A stretch of 64,000 bases of DNA from Escherichia coli O157:H7. Its GTDB lineage: Bacteria > Pseudomonadota > Gammaproteobacteria > Enterobacterales > Enterobacteriaceae. Below, piece by piece: positions 1,152 to 1,905 of this stretch. The stretch lies in the NCBI RefSeq assembly GCF_013167455.1, contig NZ_CP038328.1, one strand, 5' to 3'. Both the position numbers and the translations under genes were made by a program. Position 1 is the stretch's first letter. Every line of letters begins with the position of its first letter. Below the pieces are notes generated by a model, which did not search any database, had not been told where the DNA came from, and was given only the letters and a program-made list of their open reading frames with translations.

Positions 1152-1367
1152 ATGTACCAGATGGAAAAAATCACAACAGGTGTGTCATACACCACGTCAG
1201 CGGTGGGAACGGGCTACTGGTTCCTGCAGTTGCTGGACAGGGTTTCCCCGTCTCAGTGGGCGGCAATAGGCGTGCTGGGGAGTCTGCTGTTTGGGCTGCT
1301 GACATATCTGACGAACCTGTATTTCAAGATTAAAGAAGACCGGCGTAAGGCGGCACGGGGAGAGTAA
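1152..1367 (+). CDS. Class II holin of the phage 21 S (pinholin) type, with dual-start motif (Met1 and Met4: MYQMEK)
   Basis: 71-aa product very similar to recalled S21 (GYWFLQ..., [14 protein letters not shown]..., [19 protein letters not shown]); two TM segments; in frame with track ORF 1077..1367. Confidence 0.85.
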
Positions 1368-1371
1368 GCTG

Positions 1372-1905
1372 ATGAGCAGGAAACTCCGCTATGGTTTATC
1401 GGCTGCCGTTCTGGCGCTGATTGCCGCAGGTGCTTCTGCGCCTGAAATCCTCGACCAGTTTCTGGATGAAAAGGAAGGTAACCACACCACAGCATACCGT
1501 GATGGTGCGGGTATCTGGACCATCTGCCGTGGAGCCACCCGGGTGGATGGTAAGCCTGTTATTCCTGGCATGAAGCTGTCGAAGGAAAAATGCGACCGGG
1601 TTAACGCCATTGAGCGTGATAAGGCGCTGGCATGGGTGGAGAAAAACATCAAAGTGCCGCTGACCGAACCCCAGAAAGCGGGGATCGCGTCATTCTGTCC
1701 GTACAACATTGGTCCCGGTAAGTGTTTCCCGTCGACGTTTTACAGACGAATTAATGCAGGTGATCGAAAAGGTGCCTGCGAAGCTATTCGCTGGTGGATT
1801 AAGGACGGTGGCAGAGACTGCCGTATTCGTTCAAACAACTGTTACGGTCAGGTATCCCGTCGTGACCAGGAGAGCGCGCTGGCGTGCTGGGGAATCGACA
1901 GATAA
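1372..1905 (+). CDS. SAR endolysin, glycoside hydrolase family 24 (T4-lysozyme fold) with N-terminal signal-anchor-release segment
   Basis: N-terminal hydrophobic stretch YGLSAAVLALIAAGASA followed by E-x8-D-x5-T catalytic spacing (EGNHTTAYRDGAGIWT); ATG overlaps the holin stop region. Confidence 0.9.
   Translation: MSRKLRYGLSAAVLALIAAGASAPEILDQFLDEKEGNHTTAYRDGAGIWTICRGATRVDGKPVIPGMKLSKEKCDRVNAIERDKALAWVEKNIKVPLTEPQKAGIASFCPYNIGPGKCFPSTFYRRINAGDRKGACEAIRWWIKDGGRDCRIRSNNCYGQVSRRDQESALACWGIDR

Follow-up and report, generated by a model that had tools for sequence, protein, structure and literature searches.

The sequence analyzed here, a stretch of 64,000 nucleotides (nt) from Escherichia coli O157:H7 (NCBI RefSeq assembly GCF_013167455.1, contig NZ_CP038328.1; hereafter, the window), contains near its beginning two neighboring genes, S and R, that raise a double question: do they encode a pinholin and an endolysin with a signal-arrest-release (SAR) segment, the pair employed by phage 21, and do the two closely spaced start codons of S yield a holin along with an antiholin? 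An earlier note, made from the sequence alone, had answered both parts in the affirmative. With regard to the first part, we consider it highly likely that the locus serves a 933W-type lambdoid prophage, integrated in an E. coli O157:H7-like chromosome, as its late lysis cassette and that it follows the phage 21 route; the assignment is based on identity to known genes, domain families, motifs, hydropathy, start-site geometry and fold. With regard to the second part, the start-site geometry is that of phage 21 and the antiholin step appears doubtful.

The pinholin and the endolysin

1152..1367, + strand: S, class II holin/pinholin, 71 or 68 amino acids (aa) (PF04971, E 7e-33)
1372..1905, + strand: R, SAR endolysin, glycoside hydrolase family 24 (GH24) / T4-lysozyme-like muramidase, 177 aa (PF00959, E 6e-25)

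The limits of these two adjacent open reading frames (ORFs) coincide exactly with those given in the earlier note, and the annotation of a 99.8%-identical E. coli O157:H7 chromosome by the Prokaryotic Genome Annotation Pipeline (PGAP) places a 'class II holin family protein' and a 'lysozyme' at identical coordinates. The S protein matches the Pfam family 'Bacteriophage P21 holin S' (PF04971) with 112.8 bits, the cut-off being 26 bits and the match starting at residue 5; R matches Phage_lysozyme (PF00959) with 88.3 bits, the cut-off being 22.3 bits. In NCBIfam, no specific holin or spanin model was matched, and R yielded only a sub-threshold match to a gene-transfer-agent endolysin. Both proteins are 100% identical to their counterparts in phage 933W; the exact S sequence is present in at least 1000 contigs and the exact R sequence in at least 980, the latter under the UniRef name 'SAR-endolysin ... 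RepID=ENLYS_BP933'. One paper (PMC10462455) assigns the 933W-type S to the P21 holin S family, as a pinholin, and a SAR endolysin whose N-terminal domain is R21-like has been predicted, together with a pinholin, in 99% of the Shiga toxin (Stx) phages (Pinto et al. 2021, PMC8136144). The lysis strategy that the earlier note had recognized, that of phage 21 as distinct from lambda S/R, is borne out by the S family assignment and the likeness to S21, by the R21 fold (see below) and by the UniRef name, and the pair is a correct re-identification of a system that is already known and catalogued.

By all sequence-level features, S is a pinholin, for which pinhole formation is predicted. Identity is 77% with S21-71 and 92% with the pinholin of phage 434; the protein consists of a very short N-terminal tail, two transmembrane domains (TMDs) and a basic C-terminal tail. 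TMD1 (residues ~7-28, nt 1170-1235) has a Kyte-Doolittle (KD) mean of 0.71 and consists of Gly, Ala, Ser or Thr to 50%, the corresponding values in S21 being 0.52 and 55%; TMD2 (residues ~36-57, nt 1257-1322) is strongly hydrophobic, with the hydropathy peak in an 11-residue window at 2.26 vs 1.0 for TMD1. TMD2 carries the motif G40xxxS44xxxG48, in which all three named residues are invariant in the three-way alignment of S, S21 and the phage 434 pinholin, and both TMD2 and the C-terminal tail are nearly invariant between S and S21. Only 4 nt separate the stop codon of S from the start of R, and R has an N-terminal membrane segment, so that this holin is paired with an endolysin of the SAR type.

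The alignment to S21 and R21 that the earlier note had proposed as a check supports its claim for R as well: R (N-terminus MSRKLRYGLSAAVLALIAAGASAPE; in a longer stretch, MSRKLRYGLSAAVLALIAAGASAPEILDQFLDEKEG) is 33% identical to R21 and shares with it the fold and the N-terminal domain. The sequence matches of R in the PDB include 7m5i (phage FAHEc1 endolysin, E 2e-21), 3hde (full-length R21, 1e-17) and 4zpu (DLP12 RrrD). The AlphaFold2 model of R has a mean predicted local distance difference test score (pLDDT) of 88.8, and residues 11-35 form two helices with pLDDT values of 94-97; in Foldseek comparisons, the model aligns with full-length R21 (3hde) over 174-181 columns at a TMq of 0.72-0.74, vs 0.53 for the R21 fragment that lacks the SAR domain (3hdf), and its fold also matches the DLP12 endolysin 4zpu and 7m5i. 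The catalytic triad, E35-x8-D44-x5-T50 (nt 1474-1476, 1501-1503 and 1519-1521), is retained across an alignment of 107 sequences, namely R of the window and 106 homologs, with E35 present in 106, D44 in 107 and T50 in 104. Each of the eight Cys residues of R is invariant or nearly so in the same alignment, a pattern that is consistent with an exported, oxidized enzyme. R21 has four Cys, located at or beside corresponding positions of R, such that C109/C118 and C150/C157 are extra in R; the spacing within each of these two pairs is like that of a short disulfide-closed loop.

The membrane segment that the earlier note had assigned to the endolysin N-terminus is readily identifiable. The n-region, MSRKLR, with three basic residues, is followed by YGLSAAVLALIAAGASA, and the KD mean over residues 9-23 is 2.05. 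The SAR segment proper (residues ~7-23, nt 1390-1440) comprises 17 residues, of which 65% are Gly, Ala or Ser, with a KD mean of 1.71 (65% and 1.99 in R21), and gives way to an acidic flank; by the positive-inside rule, the basic stretch before the segment and the acidic one after it put the catalytic domain of R in the periplasm. P1 Lyz is regulated by disulfide isomerization, whereby a Cys inside the SAR domain attacks a caging disulfide. The first Cys of R is C52, so that residues 1-51, and with them the entire SAR segment, are Cys-free; therefore, this mechanism does not apply to R.

A different view of the same segment would make it either a cleavable Sec signal peptide, with R being a lysozyme secreted in constitutively soluble form, or a permanent signal anchor, as opposed to a releasable SAR domain. 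The segment does show an n-h-c layout that ends in AGASA, with small residues suitable for the -1 and -3 positions at positions 19-22. More generally, several points weigh against the full phage 21 route: by sequence rules, signal-peptidase cleavage at A21|S22 or S22|A23 is conceivable; SAR predictions can err, as with T4 RI, whose supposed SAR domain is in fact a cleavable signal peptide (PMC8385771); to transfer the R21 activation mechanism to R is to extrapolate, because the two proteins are only 33% identical; and, on the side of S, the three residues added in the 71-aa form, Met-Tyr-Gln, include neither Lys nor Arg. Nevertheless, we regard a cleaved or permanently anchored N-terminus of R as very improbable. 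Eight of its positions (L9, S10, A11, A12, L16, G20, A21 and A23) are each conserved in more than 90% of the sequences, which would be unusual if the segment were a disposable signal peptide. The sole canonical A-x-A site, A21-S22-A23, has Pro24 at +1, and a +1 Pro blocks signal peptidase cleavage; among the homologs with Ser or Thr at position 24, Pro22 is common instead (27 sequences have Pro22, including every listed APAS or APAT N-terminus). In the model, the segment belongs to the folded enzyme, with pLDDT values of 94-97, and overlays the SAR domain that is retained in active full-length R21, which is consistent with an R21-like role for it within the mature active fold. As for a permanent anchor, ~17 residues with such a high content of Gly, Ala and Ser would make a poor stable one. 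Furthermore, 933W R counts as a SAR endolysin for both Swiss-Prot and the Young laboratory, and a stock plasmid 'pZE12-933W-R, phage 933W SAR endolysin' is listed with Kuty's 2011 thesis as its source (PMC9239132).

Taking R as a SAR endolysin, we infer non-cleavage of its N-terminal domain and release dependent on the proton-motive force (PMF) by analogy; export, pinhole size and timing are likewise adopted from the phage 21 and P1 paradigms. Under this scheme, R would be exported by Sec and tethered to the inner membrane by its uncleaved SAR segment, with the enzyme restrained. Meanwhile, S would build up in the inner membrane with both TMDs inserted, until the weakly hydrophobic TMD1 exits the bilayer and TMD2 oligomerizes into small pinholes, leading to the collapse of the PMF at a programmed time. 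The depolarization would free the SAR segment, which would then refold onto the lysozyme body, in the manner of R21; the freed R would degrade the murein, after which the downstream Rz/Rz1 spanin would disrupt the outer membrane. The S/R pair controls the timing of the host burst by the 933W-type prophage, and in Stx phages, the lysis timing governs the release of both toxin and virions, which makes S and R biologically relevant.

The two start codons of S

1128..1144, + strand: small hairpin that includes the Shine-Dalgarno (SD) sequence (CUUCCG pairing with CGGGAG, 5-nt loop; the 3' arm contains GGGAG, 1140-1144)
1084..1113, + strand: intrinsic-terminator-like hairpin (13-bp stem followed by a T run, from a terminator scan; fold -19.8 kcal/mol, z -3.3)

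As the earlier note had pointed out, S begins with MYQMEK, that is, with two in-frame ATG codons three codons apart, at 1152 (Met1) and 1161 (Met4), which would give products of 71 and 68 aa, respectively. A single SD, GGGAG (1140-1144; -7.4 kcal/mol against the anti-SD), precedes ATG1 by 7 nt and ATG2 by 16 nt, and the SD of phage 21, GGAGG (-9.5 kcal/mol), is likewise located 7 and 16 nt from its two ATGs. In a survey of S homologs that included 120 protein clusters, 111 of these with a readable N-terminus, the pattern M-x-x-M-[DE]-K was found in about 95 of the 111, with YQ, YR, KS, LR, DQ, NQ, MK, HR, FQ or KF between the two Met residues. The retention of the upstream Met while the intervening residues vary implies selection on the upstream ATG itself, and the double Met of S is no chance feature. 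The SD-containing hairpin (1128-1133/1139-1144), for which analogs are predicted upstream of the holin gene in phage 21 and phage 434, represents a possible sdi-like occlusion of the SD, although with z values of -0.6 to -1.8 these structures are not significant.

What makes S21-71 and lambda S107 antiholins, according to the secondary papers from which we draw these statements, is an extra basic residue (Lys2) in the N-terminal extension, which impedes the externalization of TMD1 (PMC9636201, PMC13056207, bioRxiv 10.1101/2024.01.23.576932). To characterize the extension within the clade of the window S, we used 101 usable IMG/VR contigs that contain CAG-ATG-GAA-AAA-ATC, a search pattern that fixes Gln3 and so excludes Arg3 variants by design (such variants do occur in the protein cluster survey). 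The three codons of the extension are ATG TAC CAG in 70 of these contigs, ATA CAT CAG in 22, ATG GAC CAG in five and ATG AAC CAG in four; thus, given the fixed Gln3, the extensions read MYQ, IHQ, MDQ or MNQ, none of them basic. The 22 loci with ATA in place of the upstream ATG, together with phage 434, in which codon 1 is ATA as well, constitute a natural single-start variant of the pinholin; in phage 434, the SD is shifted to 11 nt before the sole ATG. From these cases it follows that the upstream start of S, although common, is dispensable.

How, then, are the two starts used? That the locus harbors a true S21-style pair, in which the 71-aa product from ATG 1152 is a genuine antiholin that delays the 68-aa holin from ATG 1161, is possible but, in our assessment, doubtful: the ATG spacing and the single-SD geometry equal those of phage 21, where both products are annotated, the Met at -3 is kept in most readable clusters despite the variable residues that follow it, and a hairpin that would occlude the SD is predicted here and for S21 alike, but within the clade sampled with Gln3 fixed, the extension is never basic, unlike the one in which Lys2 is held responsible elsewhere, viable phage 434 has ATA as codon 1 and is annotated solely with the 68-aa pinholin, and more than a fifth of the related contigs (22 of 101) lack the upstream ATG. 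It is unlikely, too, that a single start is used, either the well-spaced ATG1 or the ATG2 that is conserved family-wide, with the other Met being functionally irrelevant. The SD spacing is indeed optimal for ATG1 and long for ATG2, ATG2 is the sole start in relatives of the phage 434 type, and the Pfam model begins only at residue 5; however, the equal geometry in S21 is annotated as giving both products, and ATG1 is retained in sub-clades whose codons 2 and 3 differ widely. By analogy with S21, both starts of S are probably used, and since the longer product has no extra basic residue, it is likelier to be a holin almost equal to the shorter form, or one that is retarded only weakly, than to be a true antiholin. 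Accordingly, of the dual-start claim in the earlier note, the part on geometry stands and the equation with a holin/antiholin pair is not supported, the extension being MYQ, without Lys or Arg. A literature search turned up no papers on a dual start in 933W.

Of interest at this locus is a possible regulatory role of the 71-aa isoform, from which the Lys regarded as necessary for an antiholin is missing. We entertain tentatively the proposition that either the 71-aa product is an antiholin acting by a charge-independent route or the equation of a dual start with a holin/antiholin pair fails here. If the product is an antiholin, the holins of this clade would be inhibited independently of charge, for example, through tail length or N-terminal processing. 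If it is not, this often-repeated equation fails for the commonest E. coli pinholin allele, and the timing of Stx-phage lysis, and hence of toxin release, would be set by one effective species.

A third start, ATG 1077, from which the RefSeq annotation of VT2-Sakai derives a 96-aa S, was rejected: it has no SD (-3.2 kcal/mol), is located in or beside the strong terminator hairpin and adds an extension that is not conserved in phage 21 or phage 434. The VT2-Sakai annotation is probably over-extended by 25 codons; the extension is shared by several S protein clusters (91-97 aa). Two perfect inverted repeats surround the S starts, one of 9 nt (1142-1150/1246-1254), which pairs the sequence just 3' of the SD with S codons 32-34, and one of 8 nt (1119-1126/1171-1178), which encloses both starts. 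We take these long-range pairings as unproven, with z of about -1.8 and with the 1119-1126 arm absent in phage 434 and phage 21.

Gene order and prophage context

The segment 1077-3400 is 99.9% identical (over 2.3 kb) to the corresponding regions of VT2-Sakai and VT1-Sakai and is matched by 486 phage records, which are for the most part those of Stx-converting phages. The gene order in the upstream part is the C-terminus of a DUF6645 protein, DUF1378, DUF826, the terminator-like hairpin, S and R; R is followed by an ant-like gene, a 48-aa hydrophobic ORF, Rz with the embedded Rz1, a DUF1441 gene and the gene for the large terminase. The features of the cassette downstream of R are:

2176..2745, + strand: ant-like gene between R and Rz, P22 antirepressor N-terminal domain (PF10547, E 1e-45)
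2745..2891, + strand: 48-aa hydrophobic ORF between ant and Rz (PGAP 'hypothetical protein'; phrog_4906, function unknown, E 5e-30)
2899..3366, + strand: Rz, inner-membrane spanin subunit (i-spanin) (PF03245, E 5e-50)
3119..3304, + strand: Rz1, outer-membrane lipoprotein spanin subunit (o-spanin) (PF06085, E 2e-21; lipobox LVVSAC)

The terminator-like hairpin (1084-1113) sits between DUF826 and S, directly 5' of the latter, which implies that transcription of the lysis genes from the late promoter must depend on read-through by Q antitermination. Rz1 is embedded within Rz in the +1 frame. The lysis cassette is split, with the ant-like gene and the 48-aa ORF, preceded by a 270-nt non-coding gap, separating R from Rz. 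The ant-like gene, which combines the P22 antirepressor N-domain with ORF11CD3 and is labelled 'ant' in VT2-Sakai and 933W, is not itself a lysis protein gene. In about half of the 101 related IMG/VR contigs, R does not directly follow S, extra ORFs being located between the two, and in some contigs, unrelated ORFs adjoin the holin gene, for example, those for proteins starting with MNHEEMNQRFSRLENEIAELNKKL or MKKKYELVVKGINNYP; the S-R junction thus seems to be a preferred site of gene insertion.

The head and tail genes of the prophage are lambda-like. In the closest chromosome, compared over window positions of about 24400-64000, it ends after tail-fibre genes and a DinI-like gene and adjoins btsS/btsR (yehU/yehT), at the yehV-side site that Stx1-type prophages use; beyond the prophage, btsS/btsR is followed by yehS to yehI, several DUF4132 pseudogenes, IS1203, metG and apbC. 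In this chromosome, the interval that runs from the Q/tRNA region to the DUF6645 gene 5' of the window start has no annotated stx gene.

Comparison with known lysis systems

The S and R genes of 933W show no difference from the pair in the window, and the order S-R-ant-Rz/Rz1 is found, as here, in 933W, VT2-Sakai, VT1-Sakai and many other O157 prophages, both Stx and non-Stx. The likeness ends downstream of the cassette, where the window encodes the DUF1441 protein, the large terminase and lambda-like tail genes, whereas 933W and VT2-Sakai have the module for short-tailed morphogenesis.

With lambda, the locus shares the late-operon S-R-Rz/Rz1 cassette and a dual-start holin gene. However, lambda S is a class I holin with three TMDs that forms micron-scale holes, and lambda R is a cytoplasmic transglycosylase without an export signal; in contrast, the window S belongs to PF04971, and in the window R, a membrane segment lies at the N-terminus. 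The first SAR endolysin to be described, P1 Lyz, resembles the window R in its N-terminal SAR domain and its T4-lysozyme-like fold, and the R model matches the P1 Lyz structure 1xjt at a TMq of 0.65, with 16% identity in the structural alignment; the two differ in the Cys-dependent regulation discussed above.

In phage 434 (OL657226), the 92%-identical holin is likewise paired with a SAR endolysin, which is of the R21 type (165 aa), whereas the window R is of the 933W/RrrQ type; the curators of this genome annotate only the 68-aa pinholin, with the remark '65/68 residue identity to S pinholin of phage 933W'. The phage 21 record (OL657228), which the Center for Phage Technology curates, labels S21-71 an antiholin and S21-68 a class II pinholin; the gene that follows bears the label 'SAR endolysin'. 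The window differs from phage 21 in the extension of S (MYQ vs MKS, with its Lys2), in R, which is 12 residues longer than R21 and has eight Cys instead of four, in the S and R genes, which overlap in phage 21 and are 4 nt apart here, and in the ant-like gene and small ORF that split R from Rz. The shared features are, for S, the family, the length, the two TMDs, the GxxxSxxxG motif in TMD2, the basic C-terminus and the geometry of the SD and double ATG, and for R, the fold, the E-D-T triad, the SAR composition and the Cys-free SAR segment.

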